Shown here one piece after another: positions 35,990 through 48,794 of a DNA stretch of 64,000 bases. Below the pieces are notes generated by a model. It made no database searches, had not been told where the DNA came from, and saw only the letters and a program-made list of their open reading frames with translations. Origin of the DNA: an uncultured Flavobacteriales bacterium (GTDB taxonomy: Bacteria; Bacteroidota; Bacteroidia; Flavobacteriales; BACL11); NCBI GenBank assembly GCA_905612305.1, contig CAJQRK010000007.1:98660-162659 (forward strand), read 5' to 3'. Numbering within the stretch: position 1 is the first letter of the stretch; every line of letters starts with the position of its first letter. The position numbers were made by a program, and so were the translations under genes.

Positions 35990-36064
35990 GGGCGATTAAC
36001 TCAGTTGGTTCAGAGTGCCTCCTTTACACGGAGGAAGTCGGGGGTTCGAGTCCCTCATTGCCCA
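35990..36064 (+). tRNA. tRNA-Val, anticodon TAC (UAC), no encoded CCA
   Basis: Folded by hand into a cloverleaf. Acceptor GGGCGAT/ATTGCCC, D stem ACTC/GAGT, anticodon stem CCTCC/GGAGG with loop TTTACAC, T stem GGGGG/CCCTC with loop TTCGAGT, discriminator A. Confidence 0.9.
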
Positions 36065-36065
36065 C
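36044..36065 (+). repeat. attL core (within tRNA-Val T-loop/acceptor 3' strand)
   Basis: GTTCGAGTCCCTCATTGCCCAC; 21/22 identical to 43069-43090. Confidence 0.85.
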
Positions 36066-36100
36066 AGATATTCTACCAAAAGAATCCAAATTTTAGCAAC

Positions 36101-36138
36101 AACCCTGTAAACTAAGTGTTTATGGGGTTTTTTGTTTT
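36101..36138 (+). terminator. Element-borne terminator for the reconstituted tRNA-Val
   Basis: AACCCTGTAAAC-TAAGT-GTTTATGGGGTT forms a 12-bp stem (two G:U pairs), followed by TTTTTTGTTTT. Confidence 0.7.
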
Positions 36139-36175
36139 CCAACATCACCAAATAACACTATTAAATCCCATATTA

Positions 36176-36237
36176 AAGGTGTCCTATTAGGTGTCCTTTT
36201 TTAAGTTTTGAAATGGGACACCAGAAAGAGTGTAAAG
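36176..36237 (+). promoter_or_regulatory. Candidate integrase/Xis arm-type sites, left end
   Basis: GGTGTCCT-ATTA-GGTGTCCT (36178-36197), inverted GGGACACC (36215-36222) and AAGAGTGTAAAG (36226-36237). The same 22-mer and the inverted 12-mer recur at the right end. Confidence 0.5.
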
Positions 36238-36334
36238 TGTTGATAATATGTGAATTATATAGTTTATTCTGTTGCATATTAACTTAAAATTATGTATATT
36301 GTAAGCAATAAATAGGAGTCTAAAATACTTTAAA

Positions 36335-37564
36335 ATGACAAATACTTTCTCACTACTTTTCTACATCAGAACAAGTAAAACAAAATCAAATGGTACTGTA
36401 CCAATCTATGTACGCATAACTATCAATGGAAAAAGAGCTGAATTTTCTGCCAAAAGAACAATTGACCCTAACAAATGGAACAATACTAAGGGCAGAGCAA
36501 AAGGCTCTAACGAACAAACAAAATCACTGAACAAATACCTAGACACTATACAAGCTAAGGTTTATGAAAATCAACAAGAGTTAATGCAAAAGAATAAATC
36601 AATTACAGCAGGGACTCTTAAAAATGCTGTATTAGACATTAATCCTGATAAAAAAACACTTCTTGGGGTTTTTGAGAACCATAACAAAAAAATCAATCAG
36701 CTCATAGGCAAAGGTTATGCAATTGCTACTGTTGGTAAATATGAGCTTTCCTACAAACATTTAAAGGAGTTTATTAAGTTTAACTATAAAGCAGATGATA
36801 TACATTTAGGTGAAGTAATTTTCGGTTTCATCACAGATTTTGAGCATTATCTTTTAAGTGTAAAAAACATCAGCAGAAACACAACCAATAAATACCTATC
36901 ACACTTAATAAAGATGATTAATATTGCTCTAGACAATGAATGGATAGATAAAAACCCATTCCGTAAGTTTAAGATGAAAAACAAAGAGGTAGTAAAAGAG
37001 TTCTTAACAGAAAATGAGATTCAGATTTTACTTAGCAAAGAATTTACAATAAAACGTTTGGAGCTAGTCAGAGATATATTTGCTTTCTGTTGTCTTACTG
37101 GCTTAGCATTTGTTGATGTAGAAAAACTTAATCCTGATAATTTACATACAGGTATTGATGGCAACCTGTGGATACATATCAGAAGGCAAAAAACAAATAC
37201 AGCATCTCACATTCCTTTGATACCACAAGCTCTTAAAATAATTAACAAATACAAAGGCCACCCCTTAGCAGTTAATAAAGGCAGTGTTCTGCCAGTCCTT
37301 TCAAACCAAAATATGAACGCCTATCTAAAAGAAATAGCTGATTTGTGTGGGATAACCAAAAATCTAACTATGCATACTGCAAGACATACTTTTGCAACTT
37401 ATGCACTCACTAAAGGAGTTCCTATTGAAACTGTTGCAAAAATTCTAGGGCATAAAGATTTAAAAACCACACAGATTTATGCCAAGATAATTGACAGTAA
37501 AATAGCTGATGACATGAAGAAACTGATGAATATAAATTTAAAAGGAACACAGAAAGCCTCATAA
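36335..37564 (+). CDS. Tyrosine site-specific recombinase (Bacteroidetes-type integrase with N-terminal arm-binding domain)
   Basis: N-terminal LLFYIRTSKTKSNGTVPIYVRITINGKRAEFS, typical of Bacteroidetes element integrases. Catalytic HTARHTFAT (HxxR) and LGHKDLKTTQIYAK (catalytic Tyr). Confidence 0.9.
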   Translation: MTNTFSLLFYIRTSKTKSNGTVPIYVRITINGKRAEFSAKRTIDPNKWNNTKGRAKGSNEQTKSLNKYLDTIQAKVYENQQELMQKNKSITAGTLKNAVLDINPDKKTLLGVFENHNKKINQLIGKGYAIATVGKYELSYKHLKEFIKFNYKADDIHLGEVIFGFITDFEHYLLSVKNISRNTTNKYLSHLIKMINIALDNEWIDKNPFRKFKMKNKEVVKEFLTENEIQILLSKEFTIKRLELVRDIFAFCCLTGLAFVDVEKLNPDNLHTGIDGNLWIHIRRQKTNTASHIPLIPQALKIINKYKGHPLAVNKGSVLPVLSNQNMNAYLKEIADLCGITKNLTMHTARHTFATYALTKGVPIETVAKILGHKDLKTTQIYAKIIDSKIADDMKKLMNINLKGTQKAS

Positions 37565-37733
37565 AAAAATATTTAATCCTATATACGACAAACCATGGTG
37601 TATAAATAGACCCTCATAATGGTTAGTTACTCACATTATGTTGAAAAGCAAATTAGAGATAATACTTAATTTTGACTAATTATTCAATTAAAATTTGTTA
37701 TATGATATTAATACAAATCAATACATATTAAAT

Positions 37734-38003
37734 ATGGATAAAAACAACTTAGTTACAGTACAAGACCTTCAAAAAATGAAAGAAGAAATTATTAGTGAAA
37801 TAGCACTAATAACAGAAAAAACAACTACTCAAAAGGAGTGGCTAAGGTCAGCAGAGGTAATGAAGATGCTAACCCTTTCCACAGGTACACTACAGAATCA
37901 TAGAATCAATGGAAAAATCCCTTACACTAGGATAGGGGGCACTCTTTATTATGAGCGTAAAGCAATACTTAAAGTGCTTAACGATAATAAGAGAGCTGCC
38001 TAA
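37734..38003 (+). CDS. Excisionase/AlpA-like helix-turn-helix (HTH_17) protein
   Basis: First ATG at 37734 (the track uses an alternative start, 37695). EWLRSAEVMKMLTLSTGTLQNHRINGKIPYTRIGGTLYYE is the MerR-superfamily excisionase-type HTH. Its stop overlaps the next gene's start. Confidence 0.7.
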   Translation: MDKNNLVTVQDLQKMKEEIISEIALITEKTTTQKEWLRSAEVMKMLTLSTGTLQNHRINGKIPYTRIGGTLYYERKAILKVLNDNKRAA

Positions 38004-39535
38004 TGAGTAAAGAAGTTAAGAACAAATACATACCCAAAAACTATAACCACAGTATTTTACTGAAAATTCATTCTCCTAATAAGGAGGATTATAAACCTAA
38101 AGAATATAAGGTTTATCAGCTCTTAGCAATGATTAACGAGCTATACCCAATGCAGGAGAACCAAAGGCTTTTGTATGGGGATTATACCTATATAAGTGCT
38201 ACTAAATTGAAACACTTATTTGGTAATGATTATAAGGCAACTGTTGATTGGTTGGTTAAAGCTGATGTTTTCAAAACAGATAATCAATATATCAATGGTA
38301 AAAAATGTAAGGGGTTTAGTTTTACAGATAGTTATGCGGATGCTACTCCTAAGAAAGTAACCATTTGTAAGGGTTCTTTAGTAAGGAAGCTTTCTAAAAA
38401 ATCTAATTCATCTTATGCTACTGAAAAAAAGTATGGCTTCTTATATAAATATTTAGATGGCTTAGAAATTGATGTAGAGGGGGCTTCTGAATGTGCTTGG
38501 AGTATGTATAAGCAAGATAAATTAGAATACTCTAGTAAGTTAGCTAAATATGAGTTAAAGGTAGCTAGTGCCACTTATAAAAGTAAATCATTAAAAAAAC
38601 CTGCAAATCCTACAGTTAGGTTGACTGTTGGTTTAGATAATATAGATAGGATTGATAACAAAGATTTTGGTTTTACACAAGATTCAACTGCATATAGGGT
38701 GCATACTAACCTTACTAATATTAAAAGTGAGCTTAGGAATTATGTTACTTATAATGGTCAGCCAATAGTATCAGTTGATTTTGCAAATTCACAGCCAATG
38801 CTTAGTACTACACTGTTAAGTCCAGTGTTTTGGAATACTGACGCCACAGCAACTGCAGAAATGGAGGAGAAAATTCTAAAAAAAGGTTTAAAACCTAATA
38901 TTCTTAATAATTCAGACATATTACCCAGTGTTTTCAGTGATATTATAACAATGTCTTGTAATCCCTTTAGCTATACTTCTTATATTATGTTTACAAAAAC
39001 AGGTATTCCACCTGTAAGTATAGCTGTTCCTGTTGATATTCAAAGGTATATTGACCTTTGCCAGAGTGGGGATTTGTACAAGTTTCTATCAAAAGAAATG
39101 CAGTTAGAACAACAGGGTATAGCTGATATTGATGGTAGGGGTGTTAAGGCAGCAGTATTTCAAGTGTTGTTTACTGATAACAGGTTCTTAGGACAAGCTG
39201 ACGCTAAACCTAAAAGAATATTTAAGGAATTATTCCCATCTGTTTATGATATACTCTTTCATATTAAGCGTAATGATAGCACAGTCCTTCCTATTACCCT
39301 ACAAATTATTGAAAGTACTATTATTTTGAATAGAGTGGCAAAGCGTATTTCTATTGAAAGACCCAACTTATTTATTACTACTATTCACGATTCTGTTGCT
39401 ACTACATTAGGTAATGAGGATTATGTAGAGCAAGTAATGCGGGAAGAAATGATAATAGCAATAGGTCTTGAACCATCTTTTAAAGTGGATTATTGGTCAG
39501 CTGATAATCCTATAACAATTAAAAAAACAGCATAA
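38003..39535 (+). CDS. Hypothetical 510-aa protein with family-A (Pol I/T7-like) polymerase-like motifs; putative element replicase
   Basis: Real ORF, translationally coupled on both sides. YRVHTNL (231-237), IVSVDFANSQPML (D259), RGVKAAVFQVLF (K382/F386/F390) and TTIHDSVATT (H462/D463) occur in the order expected for PolA pre-motif A and motifs A, B and C; the K382/F386/F390 spacing reproduces the motif B K-x3-F-x3-Y register. The function is inferred, not demonstrated. Confidence 0.45.
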   Translation: MSKEVKNKYIPKNYNHSILLKIHSPNKEDYKPKEYKVYQLLAMINELYPMQENQRLLYGDYTYISATKLKHLFGNDYKATVDWLVKADVFKTDNQYINGKKCKGFSFTDSYADATPKKVTICKGSLVRKLSKKSNSSYATEKKYGFLYKYLDGLEIDVEGASECAWSMYKQDKLEYSSKLAKYELKVASATYKSKSLKKPANPTVRLTVGLDNIDRIDNKDFGFTQDSTAYRVHTNLTNIKSELRNYVTYNGQPIVSVDFANSQPMLSTTLLSPVFWNTDATATAEMEEKILKKGLKPNILNNSDILPSVFSDIITMSCNPFSYTSYIMFTKTGIPPVSIAVPVDIQRYIDLCQSGDLYKFLSKEMQLEQQGIADIDGRGVKAAVFQVLFTDNRFLGQADAKPKRIFKELFPSVYDILFHIKRNDSTVLPITLQIIESTIILNRVAKRISIERPNLFITTIHDSVATTLGNEDYVEQVMREEMIIAIGLEPSFKVDYWSADNPITIKKTA

Positions 39536-39729
39536 TGCATACATATTTCATAAACAAAAATGGTGTTCAAACTTATATTGATAGCAGAGGGATTTATCTC
39601 TCTTACCCCATAGACAGCCGTAACATTGCAGAAGTATCATTAGATAGCTCTACAAGGGCTCTAAAGCTGTTTCAAGTAGCTTCTTTGCAGGATATAACAG
39701 GCTTTCATATTATGGCTTATAATTTTTAG
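39535..39729 (+). CDS. Hypothetical 64-aa protein
   Basis: Its ATG overlaps the stop of the upstream gene (TAATG). No recognisable motif. Confidence 0.45.
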   Translation: MHTYFINKNGVQTYIDSRGIYLSYPIDSRNIAEVSLDSSTRALKLFQVASLQDITGFHIMAYNF

Positions 39730-39788
39730 TTATCATTACTAATCATGTGTATAATAAAATCATGTATTCTCCCTCTTAAATTAGGAAA

Positions 39789-39859
39789 ATAATAACTCAA
39801 AATGCCAGAATCTAATGTATATATCTGACTACCTATAAATAGCATCATAATTACGTAAA
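39789..39859 (+). repeat. Intra-element direct repeat, copy A
   Basis: ATAATAACTCAAAATGCCAGAATCTAATGTATATATCTGACTACCT matches 42803-42848 at 41/46 positions. Both copies are followed ~15 nt later by (A/G)ATTACGTAAA. Confidence 0.8.
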
Positions 39860-40279
39860 TAACTACTAATCAATTATTTACAATTATACTATTGGAATTA
39901 CCCTTATTAGTGTAAAATAATGTCTGGCAAAGTATTGTTATTAAGACTTACATCTACCCAGCAGTTCCGAACTCAAACAAACCTATCAATGATTAATTAA
40001 TAAAAGTTAGTTATTTATTATATTGAAGTATTTTAAGGTTTTTAAGGCTTAAAAAGAGAATAATTAACAACTCTACATCCTGTAAATTGAGCATATAGAT
40101 AGTTATAAAATTGAACTTTAAATGTGGCTGTTTAAGTGTGTTTCTTCAAGTGGTAGTTGAGGTGTTGCTTACGGTATTTAGTTCTTAACCTATATAAATA
40201 AACTCAAACTATTGAAAATAGATATATTATAACTAAGTTTGGGGAGTTTAAAACAATAGATTAACAATAAAATAAGATT

Positions 40280-41089
40280 ATGAAAAAAATACTATTTGGA
40301 TTATTACTATTTAGCTTTGTAAATGCATTATCAATAAATCCAGTTATTGAATACCTATATGAACCTGATTCTTTAGGATTAGATTTTAAAGAGTATCAAC
40401 TACTAACTAAAGATAAAGCTAAAATAAATAGTTGGTGGCTTAGTCCATTGGTTAAAAATGATAATAACAATAATGTTATAATAATTGCAGGAGGTGATGC
40501 TGGAAATATGTCTTATTTATTAAACCATGCTTACTCCATAAGCTATAACGGATACAATGTTGTATTATTTGATTACAGAGGGTTTGGCAAAAGTTCAAGT
40601 TTTGAAATAAATCAAAAGCAACTGTATTATAACGAATTTACAGATGACCTAGAAACTGTTATTAGTAAAGTAAAAGAAAAATGGAATGATAAGAAAATTG
40701 GAGTTTTAGCTTTATCAATGGGAACAATAATAACAAACTCTTATTTGAAAACACATACTCTTGATTATATTATTTTAGAGGGAGTTGTCAGTAATACAAG
40801 TAACTTCACAACAAAAGTTGAAAATTTAAAAAATCGTAAAATATTACTCCCAAAATCTTCTAAGAAGTATGATGAATTATTTTTTGTAAATCTACAAAAT
40901 GCAAAAAATGTAATTATTTTTCATGGAACTGAAGATAATTTTTCTGAAATCACAGAACTTAAAAAGATTAAAAAAATAAATATTATAGAATTTAATGGAG
41001 GGCATTTACAAGGATTTCATTCACTAAGTAAAAATTATTTTGGAGATTTATATATCAATCATATCACGAGTTTTTTTAATAATAAATGA
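40280..41089 (+). CDS. Secreted alpha/beta-hydrolase (serine hydrolase)
   Basis: Signal peptide, FDYRGFGKSS, nucleophile elbow GVLALSMGT, acid FHGTEDN and His NGGHLQGF. Confidence 0.7.
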   Translation: MKKILFGLLLFSFVNALSINPVIEYLYEPDSLGLDFKEYQLLTKDKAKINSWWLSPLVKNDNNNNVIIIAGGDAGNMSYLLNHAYSISYNGYNVVLFDYRGFGKSSSFEINQKQLYYNEFTDDLETVISKVKEKWNDKKIGVLALSMGTIITNSYLKTHTLDYIILEGVVSNTSNFTTKVENLKNRKILLPKSSKKYDELFFVNLQNAKNVIIFHGTEDNFSEITELKKIKKINIIEFNGGHLQGFHSLSKNYFGDLYINHITSFFNNK

Positions 41090-41258
41090 AGTTTCCATTT
41101 TTTTAATGATTTAATTTCTATTTTAAAGAGGAGATGTAAAATTAACTCTAATGCTTGAAAACAGTCTTATTTATAAAAAGCGAAATCTATTTACAAATTA
41201 TACCACTTTGGAAAGAATACGTACAGTTAAACCTTTATTTTAACATGAAAAAACAAAA

Positions 41259-42362
41259 ATGAGATTAATTATAATACTTTCAGTCCTACAATTTTATGCA
41301 GCAATTATTTATGCTCAAAACTCAGATACCACTTCTGCTTTAATAAAACATTCTGAAATTTTTAGAATACAGCTAGAGCAAGATAGTACTCTAAATAAGG
41401 AATTAGAATTAGTTGACTATTTTTTAAATAAAAAATATGATTCAATTAATATTCAAAGTAATAGTTCAGAACAATTTAAAAAATATAGTTTAAATTTTTA
41501 TTCCTCTAAATATTATAAAAATAAAGATAATGAATATGTAATTTTATCTTCTAAGCAAGATGCAGAGAAAACAAACTTTAAGGTTATCTACAAATTAAAC
41601 TCAGAAGCATTTAATTTGAAATATGATGATTTCTATAATGCCATTTTTAATTTGAATTTCATTAAGAAAGAAGGTGAAACATACCTAGATATTAGTCCTG
41701 ATTATACTGATTATAATACATATTCAATTGAAAATATTACCTTTTACCAACTAGAACCTTTTACTGAATTAGAGAAAAAGGAATTAGTAAAGGATGTGTC
41801 CTTTTATTTTGAGATGTATAAACGATTTGAGGTAAAGAAAAAAACTCAGCCATTAAAAATAATTAATATTAATTATTTAAGCAGTTTACACTTTATCGGT
41901 TTTGATTATGCTTTAATGCAGACTGGAATAACTATACCTGATGAAAACCTTCTTCTTTCTCCTGAATATTTATCAAACAAACATGAAATGATTCATTATA
42001 TCCTAAATGGAGAATATAAGTTTCGTACTTTTATAAATGAAGGAATAGCAACTATTTATGGAGGTAGTGGTGGTCAAACTTATCAAAAGAAATTAGAAAA
42101 TGTAAGTAATAAAATAACTGCAGAAGAAAGAGAGGATTTTATTAAATTCCTTGTTGAGGGTAAAAGAGTTGGAGGTGATTTTCAGGATTTTTATTATTCA
42201 ATATCAGCAAAATTAGTTGATTTATATAGGATAAAGGAAGGCTTTACGGATAAGGAGCTTATTGATGCTTTGAATAATCTTAAAATAACACACAAAGAAT
42301 TTATTATAGACAAGCTAAAGGAAGAGAATCCTAGTGAGTTTATCAATTCCATTTTTTATTAA
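41259..42362 (+). CDS. Secreted putative gluzincin metallopeptidase (peptidase_MA-like)
   Basis: Signal peptide. HEMIH (41991-42005) is followed 15 residues later by NEGIATIYGG, the HExxH...EGxAxY pattern of MA-clan peptidases. Confidence 0.55.
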   Translation: MRLIIILSVLQFYAAIIYAQNSDTTSALIKHSEIFRIQLEQDSTLNKELELVDYFLNKKYDSINIQSNSSEQFKKYSLNFYSSKYYKNKDNEYVILSSKQDAEKTNFKVIYKLNSEAFNLKYDDFYNAIFNLNFIKKEGETYLDISPDYTDYNTYSIENITFYQLEPFTELEKKELVKDVSFYFEMYKRFEVKKKTQPLKIININYLSSLHFIGFDYALMQTGITIPDENLLLSPEYLSNKHEMIHYILNGEYKFRTFINEGIATIYGGSGGQTYQKKLENVSNKITAEEREDFIKFLVEGKRVGGDFQDFYYSISAKLVDLYRIKEGFTDKELIDALNNLKITHKEFIIDKLKEENPSEFINSIFY

Positions 42363-42802
42363 AAAATACTTATATATATTTATACAATTAATTATTATAT
42401 AATCAATATACTGTAAATAGGTGAATTATAATAAGACTGTTTGAAGCAAAATGGACACCTCAAAAAATAGGATTAAAGTTTAATAAAGAAGATGAAAAGT
42501 AGAAAAACAACAGACAGTAGAGAAAAAGATTGTTGTTGAGTAAAACAAAAGTGCATAATTTCTATTATATAATGTGCCATTTAAGAAAGGTATAAGCGAA
42601 AACCTTACAGGAAGCTCTAAAGGTTCGGTAAGTGCGACTACTAAGCTTGTAAGAGAGTTAATTGCCATCAACATTACCTTTACAGATACTAAAGAAGAGG
42701 AATAAAGCTATGTATTAGCACTAAAACGACATCAAATCTGACAACATAAAAAAGAAAACCCTTGTAAATCATTAATACTTATTTTGAATACAATTTTAGT
42801 GT

Positions 42803-42873
42803 ATAATAACTCAAAATACCAAAATCTAGTGTGTATATCAGACTACCTTTTAACACAAAGGTGATTACGTAAA
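42803..42873 (+). repeat. Intra-element direct repeat, copy B
   Basis: See copy A (39789-39859). Confidence 0.8.
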
Positions 42874-42968
42874 CCAAGCTATATTAACAACTTACTAATT
42901 AATTTAGAAGTTTTAAAAGTTCAAAATCATATAAAATTTAATACATTTGCCACGCAGGGTGAAAATAA

Positions 42969-43018
42969 CTTTACACTCTTGCTAAAAGATTCCAATAAGG
43001 TGTCCTATTAGGTGTCCT
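42969..43018 (+). promoter_or_regulatory. Candidate integrase/Xis arm-type sites, right end
   Basis: CTTTACACTCTT (42969-42980) is the exact inverse of 36226-36237. AAGGTGTCCTATTAGGTGTCCT (42997-43018) is identical to 36176-36197. Confidence 0.5.
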
Positions 43019-43068
43019 ATTAAGAATTAAGATTTTAAACTGCTGAATATCAGTATATTAATGAGAAA

Positions 43069-43090
43069 GTTCAAGTCCCTCATTGCCCAC
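43069..43090 (+). repeat. attR core: displaced original 3' end of tRNA-Val, continuing into an encoded CCA
   Basis: GTTCAAGTCCCTCATTGCCCAC followed by CA (so ...GCCCACCA). Confidence 0.85.
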
Positions 43091-43097
43091 CAAAAAG

Positions 43098-43121
43098 AAA
43101 CCCACTCATTTGAGTGGGTTT
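43098..43121 (+). terminator. Hairpin terminator (presumed original tRNA-Val terminator); member of the CCCACTCA hairpin family
   Basis: AAACCCACTCA-TT-TGAGTGGGTTT followed by a T-rich run. Confidence 0.7.
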
Positions 43122-43214: not shown

Positions 43215-45119
43215 ATGAAAAAGAAAGGTAGTATTAATGTTAAGACCGAGAATATATTTCCAATAATTAAACAATTTCTATATTCAGATCACGAGATATT
43301 CTTAAGAGAGCTGGTTTCTAATGCGGTAGATGCTACCCAAAAAATGAAAACACTTACAACAATTGGAGAATTAGATGCTGATATTAAAAACTTAAGAGTT
43401 GAAGTAATATTAAATAAAAAAGAAAAAACAATTACCATTAGAGATAATGGGATTGGAATGACAGATAAAGAATTAGATAAATATATCAATCAAATTGCAT
43501 TCTCTGGAGCTGAAGAGTTCGTTAATAAATACAAAGATGCTGACACAAAGAATTCAATTATTGGTCATTTTGGACTTGGCTTCTACTCTGCTTTTATGGT
43601 TGCTAAAGAAGTTGAGATTATTACAAAAAGTCAGCAAGCAAATAGTAAACCAGTTAAGTGGATCTGTGATGGCTCTCCAAATTTCACAATGGAAGAAGCG
43701 AATAAAAAAACCAAGGGAACAGATATTGTTTTACATATTGCAGATGACTCAACAGAATTTTTGGAAGAAAGTAGGGTTTATGCTATTTTAAATAAGTACT
43801 GCAAGTTCTTGCCAGTTGAAATTAAATTTGGAACTAAGACTGATGAAATAGATGATCCTAAAGGAAAAAAAGATGATAAAGGAGATGTTCTTAAAATTGA
43901 TAAGGTATCAGATAATATAATTAATAATACCAAACCCGCTTGGACAAAATCTCCCGCAAATCTAAAAGATGAACATTATAAATCTTTTTATAAAGAATTA
44001 TACCCAATGGAGTTTTCTGATCCATTATTTCATATTCACTTAAATGTTGACTTTCCTTTTAACTTAACCGGTATTTTATATTTTCCAAAATTAAAAAACA
44101 ATCTAGAGGTTCAAAAAAATAAAATTAACCTTTACAGTAATCAGGTTTTTATAACTGACAATGTAGAAAATATTGTCCCTGAATTTCTAACACTTTTACA
44201 TGGTGTAATTGACTCTCCAGATATTCCTTTAAATGTCTCTAGATCTTATCTTCAAGCGGATGGAAATGTTAAGAAAATAGCAAGTCATATTACTAAAAAA
44301 GTAGCTGATAAGCTATCAAGAATGTTCAAAAAAGACAGAAAAGATTTTGAACAGAAATGGGATGATGTTAAGGTGTTTATTGAATATGGCATGTTAACAG
44401 AACAGAAATTCTTTGATAAAGCTAAAGATTTTTCTCTTTATAAAAATACTAATAGCGAATACTATACATTTAGTGAGTTTTCTAAAAAAGTAAAGAATTC
44501 TCAGAGAAATAAGGAAGGGAAAACAATAGTTTTATATACCAATGATTCAAAAGAACAGCATAGTTTTGTTAAGACCGCAACAGATAAAGGTTATGAGGTT
44601 CTGGAACTAGGAGGGCCTTTAATTAGCCATTTAATTAGCAGGCTTGAGGCAGATAGTACGGATATTCAATTTACTAGAGTTGATGCCGATATAATAGATA
44701 AACTAATTGAGCAAGAAGAAGCTACTATTTCAAAGTTATCTGATAAAGAACAAGAGAAGTTACAGAAAATGATTGAAGAAGGAGTTGATAAGGAAAAATT
44801 TACTGTGCAAGTTCAAAATATGTCAGTCTCAGACTCACCTATAGTTATAACTCAGAGTGAATTTATGAGAAGAATGAAAGAGCAGCAGCAATTATCTGGA
44901 GGCGGAGGCATGCAGATGTTTGGCTCTATGCCTGAGTCATATAATTTAGCCATTAATTCAAATCACGATCTAATTAGCAAGATTCTTAAAGAGAAGACAA
45001 AGAAGAAAAGAACTAATCTAATTAATCAACTTCTTGATTTAGCCTTATTATCTCAGGGCATGCTAAAAGGTGAAGATCTTACTGCATTCATTTCTAGAAG
45101 CGTGACTCTAATTAAATAA
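43215..45119 (+). CDS. htpG: Molecular chaperone HtpG (Hsp90)
   Basis: 634 aa. GHKL ATPase N-domain motifs (EIFLRELVSNAVDA, IGHFGLGFYSAFMV). Confidence 0.95.
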   Translation: MKKKGSINVKTENIFPIIKQFLYSDHEIFLRELVSNAVDATQKMKTLTTIGELDADIKNLRVEVILNKKEKTITIRDNGIGMTDKELDKYINQIAFSGAEEFVNKYKDADTKNSIIGHFGLGFYSAFMVAKEVEIITKSQQANSKPVKWICDGSPNFTMEEANKKTKGTDIVLHIADDSTEFLEESRVYAILNKYCKFLPVEIKFGTKTDEIDDPKGKKDDKGDVLKIDKVSDNIINNTKPAWTKSPANLKDEHYKSFYKELYPMEFSDPLFHIHLNVDFPFNLTGILYFPKLKNNLEVQKNKINLYSNQVFITDNVENIVPEFLTLLHGVIDSPDIPLNVSRSYLQADGNVKKIASHITKKVADKLSRMFKKDRKDFEQKWDDVKVFIEYGMLTEQKFFDKAKDFSLYKNTNSEYYTFSEFSKKVKNSQRNKEGKTIVLYTNDSKEQHSFVKTATDKGYEVLELGGPLISHLISRLEADSTDIQFTRVDADIIDKLIEQEEATISKLSDKEQEKLQKMIEEGVDKEKFTVQVQNMSVSDSPIVITQSEFMRRMKEQQQLSGGGGMQMFGSMPESYNLAINSNHDLISKILKEKTKKKRTNLINQLLDLALLSQGMLKGEDLTAFISRSVTLIK

Positions 45120-45123
45120 GTAT

Positions 45124-45172
45124 AAGTTCGAGTATTTTAGCCCACCAAAAGAAAAACCACTCAATTGAGTGG
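45124..45172 (+). repeat. Degenerate second copy of the tRNA-Val 3' end plus hairpin
   Basis: AAGTTCGAGTATTTTAGCCCACCAAAAGAAAAACCACTCAATTGAGTGG aligns with 43067-43118 (AAGTTCAAGTCCCTCATTGCCCACCAAAAAGAAACCCACTCATTTGAGTGGG). Confidence 0.6.
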
Positions 45173-45210: not shown

Positions 45211-45232
45211 ACCCACTCAATATTGAGTGGGT
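45211..45232. terminator. Palindromic hairpin of the CCCACTCA family (terminator for gpx and/or htpG)
   Basis: ACCCACTCAA-TA-TTGAGTGGGT, a perfect 10-bp stem between convergent genes. Confidence 0.65.
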
Positions 45233-45948: not shown

Positions 45949-47877
45949 TTATCTTGCTAAACGTCTTATAACATCTCCAGTATCATATATATCAAAAACT
46001 ACTTGATTGATTGTATTGCGATCAACTTTTTCACCAAGAATATTTATTGAATATAAATATTCTTTATCTAAAGTATTGTAATCAATAATATCTGTTGTTG
46101 TTGGAATTAAGACAGCATCAATAACATGTACAACACCATTGTCAGCTACAATATCAGCTACAGTTACCATAGCATTGTCAATAAAGACTCCCATTGAGTT
46201 AATTGTTAGTGTTACATCTGTCCCAAGTAATGTTGAAACTACTTGATTATTTGATAACATTCCTGACATTACGCTATCTCCAACAACATGATGCTTTAAG
46301 ATATCAGTTAATTGAGGAATATCATTAAGTAATGCCGTAACTGTACCAGCTGGCAATAAATTAAATGCAGCATCTGTAGGCGCAAATAAAGTAAATGGAC
46401 CAGCTCCAGAGAGTACACCATTTAATGCACAAACATCAACAGCAACTTTTAAGGTAGTATGATCTGCAGAATTAGAAACTATATCATAAATGGTATTTCC
46501 TACACAGCTAGTGTTCCAGTAAGGATTTGAAGGATCATTAGGAAATACAACTATCTCTGTTGAAGGGTCATAATCAATACCAGCAGTTAATACATTTGCA
46601 TCATCAACAAATGTTACTTGATGAGTTATAAAATTATATATATACGCTTGATGACAAACACCACAAGTATCCTCTAGTGCAGTTCCATTAACAACACCAT
46701 AACAATCAGTTGGAGGCAATAAAACAGCATCAATTACGTGTACTACTCCATTATCAGCCACTATATCTGCAACTATTACTTGAGCATTATCTATAAAAAC
46801 TCCCATAGAATTAATTGTTACTGTTACATCCGTTCCAAGTAATGTATTTACTATCTGGCCATTAGATAACATTCCTGACATTACGCTAGCACCCACAACA
46901 TGATGCTTTAAAATATCTGTTAACTGAGGTATATCATTTAATAATGCCGTAACTGTACCAGCTGGTAATAAATTAAATGCAGCATCTGTAGGCGCAAACA
47001 AAGTAAATGGACCAGGGCCTGATAAAGTACCATCCAAGGCACAAGCATCAATAGCAACTTTTAGTGTCGTATGGTCAGCTGATGATGAAACAATATCATA
47101 AATTGAATTTGTAGCAGGTGGCAATAAAACAGCATCAATAACATGCACAACACCATTGTCAGCTACAATATCAGCTACAATTACCATGGCGTTGTCAATA
47201 AAAACTCCCATTGAGTTAATTGTTACTGTTACATCTGTACCATTTAATGTTGTGACAACTTGATTATTTGATAACATTGTTGACATTACGCTAGCTCCCA
47301 CAACATGTTGCTTTAAAATATCTGTTAACTGAGGTATATCATTTAATAATGCCGTAACTGTACCAGCTGGTAATAAATTAAATGCAGCATCTGTAGGCGC
47401 AAACAAAGTAAATGGACCAGGGCCTGATAAAGTACCATCCAAGGCACAAGCATCAATAGCAACTTTTAGTGTCGTATGGTCAGCTGATGATGAAACAATA
47501 TCATAAATTGAATTAGAAGAATTAACAATAATTACACCAGTCATACCATTTGTAGCATGTTGACCAACAGAACAGTCATAAGAATAAGTTCCTGGCACAG
47601 TAAAAATGTGGGTATAAATTATTGCGCCCACAACATTAGTAGTATTAGACTGAAAGCTTACAGGATTATTAAAACTTGATCCTGTCTGAGAATTGACATC
47701 AGCATTAACATCATGATTACCACCATCATTAATCCACTCTACAGTGTCTCCCAAATTAATAGTTAGATTAGATGGCATATAATAATATCCACCTGAATTC
47801 ACAGTATGGATAATTGCACTAACTGTAGATGCAAAAAAGCAGGTTAGAAGTAAGAAAATTAGTTTGTTTGTTTTCAT
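45949..47877 (-). CDS. Secreted cupredoxin (plastocyanin-like) domain fused to three FAS1 (fasciclin) domains
   Basis: Signal peptide. Type-1 Cu ligand pattern ...GGNHDV...YDCSVGQHATNGMTGVIIV. Three FAS1 units (FTLFAPTDAAFNLLPAGTVTALL...GVVHVIDAVLLP). Confidence 0.85.
   Translation of the reverse strand: MKTNKLIFLLLTCFFASTVSAIIHTVNSGGYYYMPSNLTINLGDTVEWINDGGNHDVNADVNSQTGSSFNNPVSFQSNTTNVVGAIIYTHIFTVPGTYSYDCSVGQHATNGMTGVIIVNSSNSIYDIVSSSADHTTLKVAIDACALDGTLSGPGPFTLFAPTDAAFNLLPAGTVTALLNDIPQLTDILKQHVVGASVMSTMLSNNQVVTTLNGTDVTVTINSMGVFIDNAMVIVADIVADNGVVHVIDAVLLPPATNSIYDIVSSSADHTTLKVAIDACALDGTLSGPGPFTLFAPTDAAFNLLPAGTVTALLNDIPQLTDILKHHVVGASVMSGMLSNGQIVNTLLGTDVTVTINSMGVFIDNAQVIVADIVADNGVVHVIDAVLLPPTDCYGVVNGTALEDTCGVCHQAYIYNFITHQVTFVDDANVLTAGIDYDPSTEIVVFPNDPSNPYWNTSCVGNTIYDIVSNSADHTTLKVAVDVCALNGVLSGAGPFTLFAPTDAAFNLLPAGTVTALLNDIPQLTDILKHHVVGDSVMSGMLSNNQVVSTLLGTDVTLTINSMGVFIDNAMVTVADIVADNGVVHVIDAVLIPTTTDIIDYNTLDKEYLYSINILGEKVDRNTINQVVFDIYDTGDVIRRLAR
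46905..47514. repeat. Intragenic tandem duplication, 405-bp period (FAS1 units 1 and 2)
   Basis: 46905-47109 and 47310-47514 are identical by eye over ~205 bp. A third, more diverged unit lies at ~46290-46500. Confidence 0.85.
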
Positions 47878-48760: not shown

Positions 48761-48794
48761 AAATAACCCCACTCAATATTGAGTGGGGTTATTT
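48761..48794. terminator. Palindromic hairpin of the CCCACTCA family between convergent genes
   Basis: AAATAACCCCACTCAA-TA-TTGAGTGGGGTTATTT. The right arm overlaps the msrB stop codon. Confidence 0.65.

Follow-up and report, generated by a model that had tools for sequence, protein, structure and literature searches.

An integrative element of 7 kb in tRNA-Val(UAC) of several marine flavobacteria and its polymerase-like gene

A tRNA-Val(UAC) gene whose last 22 nucleotides recur 7 kb further downstream raises the question of whether the DNA between the two copies is a mobile element and, if so, how it is copied and by what route it travels. The gene lies in a 64,000-nucleotide stretch (hereafter the window) of an uncultured Flavobacteriales bacterium (GTDB lineage BACL11; GenBank assembly GCA_905612305.1, contig CAJQRK010000007.1, positions 98,660 to 162,659, forward strand). 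The host is a small, streamlined marine flavobacterium represented by a metagenome-assembled genome (MAG) of 1.33 Mb in 77 contigs, 75% complete. An original prediction, made from the letters of the window, had proposed an apparently intact integrative element of about 7 kb in the tRNA gene, and this is borne out by an empty site, by identical copies in several species and by attP junctions. The 7,025 bp from core to core very probably constitute a site-specific integrative element with an integrase, an Xis-like protein, a replication module and distal cargo. The element is genuine and, because identical copies sit at the same site in several species, it is spreading now; this population-level proof of its mobility is new.

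The insertion site comprises the following features:

35990 to 36065, + strand: tRNA-Val(UAC), complete, its last 22 nt being attL (ARAGORN tac call, Rfam tRNA 65.7 bits, cloverleaf fold)
36044 to 36065, + strand: attL core GTTCGAGTCCCTCATTGCCCAC, with a host-derived G at position 5 (G in all occupied and empty host sites)
36101 to 36138, + strand: element-borne intrinsic terminator, now 3' of the tRNA (12-pair stem and T-run; -18.6 kcal/mol, z -2.6)
43069 to 43090, + strand: attR core GTTCAAGTCCCTCATTGCCCAC, with an element-derived A at position 5 (A in all attR and in both attP junctions)
43098 to 43121, + strand: original host tRNA-Val terminator hairpin, displaced by 7 kb (-17.1 kcal/mol, z -6.2)

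The two cores form the 22-nt direct repeat GTTC(G/A)AGTCCCTCATTGCCCAC, found at the predicted coordinates with a single mismatch, at position 5, and enclose an insert of 7,003 bp (36066 to 43068). The core has two copies only in the 1.33-Mb assembly, even with up to two mismatches allowed, and by our own rough estimate about 0.01 chance matches of 21 in 22 nucleotides are expected in 64 kb. The proximal core continues AGATATTC and then runs into the stem-loop and T-run at 36101-36138, a terminator conserved in the related elements of genome G010 and contig L133. The distal core continues CCAAAAAG / CAAAAAGAAA, followed by the CCCACTCATTTGAGTGGG hairpin. (G-numbers, G000 to G024, denote genomes, G000 being that of the window and G003, G006 and G010 belonging to the same genus; L-numbers denote contigs or loci.) The empty site of G003 has an intact tRNA-Val with the same hairpin as 43098-43121 directly 3' of it, and the attR end in G006 is identical over 118 nt. 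In the window, as had been predicted, a complete tRNA-Val now precedes a trailer and terminator borne by the element; the tRNA is restored letter for letter, and its trailer and terminator alone change. Because attL carries G and attR carries A in every occupied site, strand exchange falls within the 17 identical nucleotides 3' of position 5. Rfam found no RNA in addition to the tRNA.

The CCA that the original prediction had read at the distal copy is present in the sequence and carries no functional weight. An importance of its loss was considered and rejected, because 18 of the 19 tRNA genes detected in the window's genome lack an encoded CCA (one encodes it), native tRNA-Val trailers in several other hosts lack it too, and a gene for the CCA-adding enzyme is present in all five genomes of the genus that were searched.

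Evidence for mobility was counted by single junctions, and left-right pairings across whole contigs were excluded, because an identical repeat of 7 kb can be mis-threaded by assemblers. Ten metagenome contigs with the element, drawn from several projects (ENA, JGI and Tara assemblies), were compared. All element segments in them are 100% identical to the window, with two exceptions: L123 shows 99.6% identity in the gene for a 367-aa protein and 100% in its other element segments, and the variant L129 shows 96% in that gene and has its right end replaced. In the flanks of these contigs, folC (just upstream) is 68-79% and a TonB-like gene 65-80% identical to the window. The 900-nt flanks 5' of the tRNA can be sorted into at least five groups with mutual identity below 95% (the window; L123/L126; L124/L132; L125; L131; L127), and the sequence 3' of attR exists in six versions. 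The left flank of L127 is less than 73% identical to all others and its tRNA differs at 9 positions, the 22-nt core still being identical. To judge from these comparisons, the element has spread very recently into at least five host species. The exact 510-aa protein encoded by the element, discussed below, is contained in 265 blocks of a public assembly collection.

The empty attB junction that the original prediction had suggested looking for was also found. Contig L217 is an empty site from the population of L123, L126 and L128. Both of its flanks are 99.2% identical to those of the occupied L128, the flank alignments overlap by exactly the 22-nt core, and the two contigs differ solely by the 7,003-bp insert and one core. 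Among related genomes, the tRNA-Val site is empty in G003 and occupied by a sister element in G010, which answers the proposed comparison for presence and absence. The JGI contig L126 ends in the right end of the identical element, the core with A at position 5 and the left end, that is, in an attP junction. An exact search for the predicted attP returned one further contig, Tara L133, a circular permutation of an 85% relative with int, xis, the 510-aa gene, a 64-aa open reading frame (ORF) and other cargo.

Two considerations tell against taking these junctions and contigs at face value. An attP junction in a contig could stem from a free circle or from a tandem dimer, so that the proposed circular form is represented by its junction in L126 and L133, with circle and dimer undistinguished; and a contig running through the entire identical element may join flanks that do not belong together. 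The further idea that the locus is an immobile island in decay or an artefact of assembly, its repeats due to chance or to mis-joins, is scarcely credible. It can appeal to a host MAG that is 75% complete and split into 77 contigs and to a hairpin repeat family near attR. However, all genes are intact, the empty site is exact, identity across species reaches 100%, attP junctions exist, and the 22-nt core is too short for false joins in the k141_ contigs (read as 141-mer assemblies). A repeat created by assembly, which the original prediction had named as its own possible failing, is contradicted by independent assemblies from several projects that give the same junctions.

Flank pairing over whole contigs was rejected as evidence in view of L127 and L128. 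Their right flanks are shared (99% identical); their left flanks are unrelated, and the 5' halves of their tRNA-Val genes are different. The pair represents either two recombined tRNA-Val contexts or assembler mis-threading across the 7-kb repeat.

Between the repeats lie six ORFs, all on the + strand, in the order originally given: int, an AlpA/Xis-like helix-turn-helix (HTH) gene, a replicase-like gene, a 64-aa ORF and two secreted-enzyme cargo genes. The recombination and replication features are:

36177 to 36237, + strand: left att arm, with a AGGTGTCCT doublet (36177-36197), an inverted GGGACACC (36215-36222) and AAGAGTGTAAAG (36226-36237); conserved in three element variants
36335 to 37564, + strand: tyrosine integrase of 409 aa with Arm-DNA-bind_5, Phage_int_SAM_5 and Phage_integrase domains (Pfam and PHROG matches)
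37695 to 38003, + strand: HTH_17 protein of 102 aa, or 89 aa from an internal ATG (Pfam HTH_17, 1e-8; PHROG excisionase families)
38003 to 39535, + strand: minimal family-A-polymerase-like protein of 510 aa (AlphaFold fold, Foldseek, invariant residues)
39535 to 39729, + strand: 64-aa ORF, its start codon overlapping the stop codon of the 510-aa gene by one base (ORF list)
42969 to 43018, + strand: right att arm, with CTTTACACTCTT (42969-42980) and a AGGTGTCCT doublet (42998-43018) (pattern search, alignment)

The motif AGGTGTCCT has four exact copies in the window, all of them in doublets at the ends of the element (36177/36189 and 42998/43010), and AAGAGTGTAAAG and CTTTACACTCTT (36226-36237 and 42969-42980) form a perfect 12-bp inverted pair. 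When the elements of the window, G010 and L133 are aligned, about 270 nt at the left end and 150 nt at the right end show few differences, and the int genes are about 80-85% identical. The arm repeats may be binding sites for the arm domain of the integrase and for the HTH_17 protein. The integrase shares with its relatives the HTARH (HxxR) motif, the beta-hairpin Lys and the Tyr; its first catalytic Arg box reads TGLAF, without the Arg, as in all relatives. The HTH_17 gene next to int is conserved across the family, and its product is a candidate excisionase or AlpA-like directionality factor.

A mechanism can be proposed on these grounds. The integrase would recombine the 22-nt core of attP with its identical counterpart in the T arm and acceptor of the tRNA, and strand exchange within 17 nt 3' of position 5 would rebuild the tRNA unchanged and leave the old terminator at attR. 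Excision would be carried out by the integrase and the Xis-like HTH_17 protein acting on the conserved arm sites at both ends. The slot after int and xis, occupied here by the 510-aa gene and a 64-aa partner, would hold a replication module that copies the excised circle, and the distal cassette region, with a conserved leader of its own, would express the cargo, here two secreted enzymes.

The proposed copying step turns on the 510-aa protein. An AlphaFold model built from 35 sequences has a predicted local distance difference test (pLDDT) score of 83 and a predicted template modelling (pTM) score of 0.82. Foldseek against the PDB returned 84 matches at E<=1e-3, and the top 50 listed are all family-A (Pol I-type) polymerases, including Klenow, KlenTaq, Bst, Pol theta and apicoplast Pol. 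In a viral library the best fold matches are proteins of 403-409 aa, with TM scores of 0.72-0.80 and E values down to 3e-23; one bears the name 'putative DNA polymerase I [uncultured marine phage]'. Invariant in the 35-sequence alignment are D259 (D-x-x-N-S-Q-P), K382-x3-F386-x3-F390 and H462-D463-S464, which by inspection, and with a weak alignment at motif C, appear to correspond to motifs A, B and C. On our own reading, the HDS motif and a Gln at the position of the steric-gate Glu of DNA polymerases would be compatible with synthesis of either DNA or RNA. The N-terminal 215 aa, modelled separately (pLDDT 70), gave non-significant fold matches resembling winged-helix regulators, and neither a 3'-5' nor a 5'-3' exonuclease domain was found in the protein.

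Several results speak against a polymerase and, beyond that, against a replicase. The 510-aa protein and its 34 homologues have no Pfam, PHROG, NCBIfam or PDB-sequence match, and Pfam DNA_pol_A matches none of the 35 members even at E 10. The global TM score to the PDB matches is only about 0.3. Profile-profile comparison with the hosts' own PolA (hhalign) gave a non-significant E of 0.14, with motif C alone aligned. No origin of replication was identified in the element, and on a Hymenobacter plasmid a homologue coexists with a conventional Rep and ParA. The protein is therefore described, on its model, as family-A-polymerase-like by fold, and it is not filed as a member by sequence; the wording 'by fold' is used because the polymerase fold matches and no significant sequence-level match does. 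It is the product of the 'replicase-like' gene of the original prediction.

The balance tips slightly towards the 510-aa protein being the replicase of the element. The main argument for a role in replication is that, in the sister element of G010, an initiator replaces the polymerase gene in the same slot. This element spans 13.5 kb, is bounded by the same attL and attR, and is identical to that of the window at 85% in Int, 86-88% (nt) in xis and about 91% at the right end. Its middle differs from the window and its cargo is different, and its polymerase slot holds a 232-aa replication initiator (phrog_4707, 3.7e-22, DnaD-like). It is rather unlikely that the element is mobile and the 510-aa protein is instead a nucleotidyltransferase for repair, defence or transfer, the circle being unreplicated or copied by the host. 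This explanation fits the lack of an origin among the features found, the fact that sequence-level membership in family A is not shown, the defence cargo that relatives often carry, and the separate Rep of the Hymenobacter plasmid. Against it stand the position of the gene in the conserved int-xis-pol core rather than in the variable cargo, the replication initiator in the same slot of G010, the homologues in phage genomes and the invariance of catalytic-type residues. The Hymenobacter plasmid was also considered as evidence for a replicase and did not settle the question, its own Rep being present.

Searched with a profile, the 510-aa family numbers 7,483 cluster representatives at E<=1e-3, of which 2,266 pass E<=1e-30. 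Named genomic members are nearly all Bacteroidota, with Flavobacteriales, Chitinophagales, Sphingobacteriales, Bacteroidales and Cytophagales included, and none of the 66 other genomes of the host family carries the gene. The arrangement met most often, tRNA-int-HTH_17-pol, is located in most cases at tRNA-Ser(tga), in some at tRNA-Asp(gtc) and in the window at tRNA-Val; remoter members are combined with different integrases and tRNAs, and the attR of most tRNA-Ser members lies beyond the 13-kb flanks examined. The 64-aa ORF behind the polymerase gene is conserved in L133 and weakly in L041. Members in Psychroserpens and Winogradskyella carry restriction-modification, GmrSD and helicase genes as cargo. 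Because relatives carry restriction and other anti-phage genes, the element family is probably a major vehicle for accessory genes in Bacteroidota.

Distant homologues (23-33% identical) occur on viral contigs, including huge phages and one contig of 15.6 kb, and on the single Hymenobacter plasmid. The 15.6-kb contig (L136, IMGVR_UViG_3300020048_000927) encodes a serine recombinase, a 513-aa polymerase homologue (33%) and a large terminase, and may be a small temperate phage using the same replicase family. The huge uncultured phages LR756511.1, LR756502.1, LR745206.1 and LR756504.1 (595-642 kb), whose records are unannotated, have homologues at 26-28%.

A literature search returned no description of the polymerase-bearing family. 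A broader reading, offered tentatively and possible rather than probable, is that the element belongs to a large undescribed Bacteroidota class of 'self-synthesizing' integrative elements. Their circles would be copied by their own mini family-A polymerase fused to an N-terminal DNA-binding domain, as a PolA counterpart of pipolins and casposons, and they would spread between streamlined marine species without conjugation or capsid genes of their own.

The route by which the element passes between hosts was addressed through the genes that it carries and those of its host genus. As had been predicted, it shows no relaxase or mobilisation gene and no capsid or portal gene: relaxase, capsid, portal and terminase families have no match among its proteins in Pfam, PHROGs or NCBIfam. 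None of the six proteins has a head or packaging PHROG match at E below 0.09, and one marginal terminase match, of the HTH protein, stands at E 0.09. Exact patterns for the attP junction and the right end gave 0 matches in IMG/VR, a weak test. Relaxase (PF03432) and TraG-D_C (PF12696) were found in none of 16 genomes of the genus, five of them of high quality, with a Bacteroides control positive.

Because packaging and capsid genes and any IMG/VR match to element sequences are missing, a satellite lifestyle is unsupported, and so is the likeness to P4 or to phage-inducible chromosomal islands (PICI) that formed one half of the original comparison; the suggested check for element sequence in virion DNA likewise ended in the 0 matches of that weak test. 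On this explanation a helper phage would trigger excision and replication of a P4/PICI-like satellite, or of a PICI-like tycheposon (a kind of element compared below), and package the 7-kb circle, whence the spread across species. In its favour are the small size and the succession of int, Xis-like and replication genes; moreover, no conjugation genes are seen in the host genus, distant polymerase homologues occur in phages including the 15.6-kb viral contig with its large terminase, and a small DUF5681 gene, related in PHROGs to phage proteins without an assigned function, is present in relatives. It is nevertheless improbable, given that PHROGs and Pfam yield no terminase, capsid, portal, head-size or helper-interference match, that the exact attP and right-end sequences are absent from IMG/VR, that the DUF5681 gene is decayed in the window element, and that the cargo consists of housekeeping-type secreted enzymes.

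Many small integrative elements of Bacteroidota move by borrowing the conjugation machinery of an integrative and conjugative element (ICE). The element could accordingly be mobilizable in the manner of the nonreplicating Bacteroides units (NBU), using a co-resident ICE through a cryptic origin of transfer (oriT), and on sequence alone an oriT is possible. This is very improbable: mobilisation by conjugation is unlikely because neither the element nor the 16 genomes of the genus contain a relaxase or coupling protein, the element has no relaxase or Mob gene, and PF03432 and TraG-D_C are found in 0 of 16 genomes where the Bacteroides control is positive.

The distal part of the element is a cargo region, whose GC content is 22-26% as against 30-35% around it:

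39789 to 39859, + strand: first copy of a 71-nt direct repeat that brackets the cargo, 80% identical to 42803-42873
39930 to 40279, + strand: putative cargo leader/promoter module, with TAAGTTTG about 40 nt before the ATG; recurs before several G010 and L133 cargo genes
40280 to 41089, + strand: cargo 1, a 269-aa alpha/beta-hydrolase with an N-terminal signal-like sequence (Pfam Hydrolase_4, Abhydrolase_1)
41259 to 42362, + strand: cargo 2, a 367-aa HExxH (HEMIH) protein with a signal-like N-terminus, of a narrow orphan family
42574 to 42705, + strand: 43-aa decayed remnant of a small DUF5681 gene; relatives have it intact
42803 to 42873, + strand: second copy of the 71-nt direct repeat; only this right copy is conserved in G010

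The 71-nt repeat may be a scar of cargo insertion or a site of exchange. The leader, the 350 nt before the hydrolase gene, looks reusable, and its reading as a promoter is suggested by the Bacteroidetes -7 consensus. The signal peptide and the Ser-Asp-His triad of the hydrolase were recognized by inspection alone. The 64-aa and 367-aa proteins have no match in Pfam, PHROGs, NCBIfam or a profile search of the PDB, and relatives of the latter form 4 clusters only, all at least 80% identical. The 72-75-aa versions of the small gene in L133 and G010 match DUF5681 at 2e-8; the window copy has no match.

In another island an 82% homologue of the 367-aa protein adjoins a LanM/C39-ABC/HlyD cluster. 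Genes of LanM type (DUF4135), for a C39-peptidase ABC exporter and of HlyD-like type follow the 367-aa homologue at L129:6683-13025 and at L134/L135:10380-16722, that is, in the variant L129 and in an unrelated island that also carries genes of a cyclic-oligonucleotide-based antiphage signalling system (CBASS). Because the cluster follows the homologue in both L129 and the other island, cargo exchange by recombination is indicated. The G010 element (L018 2700-16200, minus strand) has a cassette-like layout with proteins sorted by the type IX secretion system (T9SS), collagen-repeat proteins and Lcl_C proteins; the spacers between its cargo genes are repeated intergenic modules of 190-220 nt, three of them with an intact DUF5681 ORF of 72-75 aa.

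Beyond attR, a decayed look-alike of a tRNA-Val 3' end with a hairpin, an att-like scar, lies at 45126-45172 directly after htpG (43215-45119), which is situated between attR and this scar. This gene has another location, beside a Peptidase_C1 gene, in G003, in G010 and in close population relatives, and the sequence 3' of tRNA-Val in G003 holds a homologue of the window gene at 45949-47877. The position of htpG in the window could reflect a rearrangement, or an earlier integration that enlarged the island. A dispersed repeat of 150-180 nt (83-91% identical) flanks htpG in related populations (L222:7653-7834, and downstream in L224), and in the window's genome at least seven contigs carry it (C56, C20, C19, C12, C76, C46, C34).

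The terminator hairpin CCCACTCA...TGAGTGGG with its A-rich leader belongs to a multi-copy family, with copies in the window at 43098-43121, 45212-45231 and 48768-48787 and dozens of copies of 40-45 nt, at 91-100% identity, across genomes of the genus (G000-G024). Some copies are preceded by fragments resembling tRNA 3' ends. At L215:4320-4400, where a photolyase gene is not beside tRNA-Val, the hairpin is preceded by the apparent 3' end of another tRNA, GTTCGAACC...GGTCCACCA, which is possibly another att scar.

Streamlined marine bacteria exchange genes without plasmids or conjugation, and the element offers a natural instance of such exchange in progress. Its 7 kb are identical (one contig has 99.6% in one gene) across at least five species of flavobacteria, although the genes around it are only about 70% identical between them, and samples of the same kind yielded both the empty site and the excision junction. 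The 510-aa gene is here the founding member of a family that has thousands of representatives and lacks curated annotation. If its product replicates the element, Bacteroidota have a class of polymerase-bearing integrative elements of their own, and the enzyme would be among the smallest family-A polymerases known.

Among known systems, the NBU and CTnDOT-type elements of Bacteroides invite comparison through the integrase. IntDOT-type enzymes typically lack the first catalytic Arg at the canonical box, as the tyrosine integrase described here does, and NBU1 targets a tRNA 3' end. The element differs from them in that no relaxase, oriT, mobilisation or transfer genes were found in it or in the host genus. 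With PICI and P4-like satellites it shares the order of int, Xis or AlpA-like HTH and replication gene, the small size and the conserved host site, but it has no packaging, capsid-redirecting or helper-sensing genes, its replication gene is of another type, and it was not found in the viral contig collection. Pipolins and casposons are self-synthesizing integrative elements with their own PolB, and pipolins reside in tRNA genes with tyrosine recombinases. Like them the present element is integrative, and its hallmark gene encodes a protein with the predicted fold of a DNA polymerase; unlike them it has a family-A-like rather than a family B enzyme, no terminal inverted repeats and no Cas1.

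The 'minimal integrative element', the other half of the original hedge, proved the better one, and the closest described concept is that of the cargo-carrying tycheposons (Hackl et al., bioRxiv 10.1101/2020.12.28.424599). These are described in Prochlorococcus, with related elements in Alpha-, Gamma- and Deltaproteobacteria; neither 'Bacteroidetes' nor 'Flavobacter' occurs in the text of that paper (bioRxiv 10.1101/2020.12.28.424599). The replication genes named there are mainly primases and helicases (bioRxiv 10.1101/2020.12.28.424599), whereas the gene in the corresponding place here is family-A-polymerase-like. The integrase here also has the Arm-DNA-bind_5 architecture common in Bacteroidota relatives, and because it shares this architecture with them its membership in the tycheposon clade is doubtful. 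In layout the correspondence is close. Tycheposons, too, are small elements of streamlined marine bacteria. One of their ends bears a tyrosine integrase specific for a tRNA, next to which a small replication module may lie (a role that the 510-aa gene would fill here); they carry niche or defence cargo and no conjugation genes. They occupy the tRNA-proximal end of a hypervariable region with partial tRNA copies, a setting resembled here by the six different right flanks and the decayed att-like scar at 45126-45172. Membership is not claimed; likened by its layout, the element works like a tycheposon.

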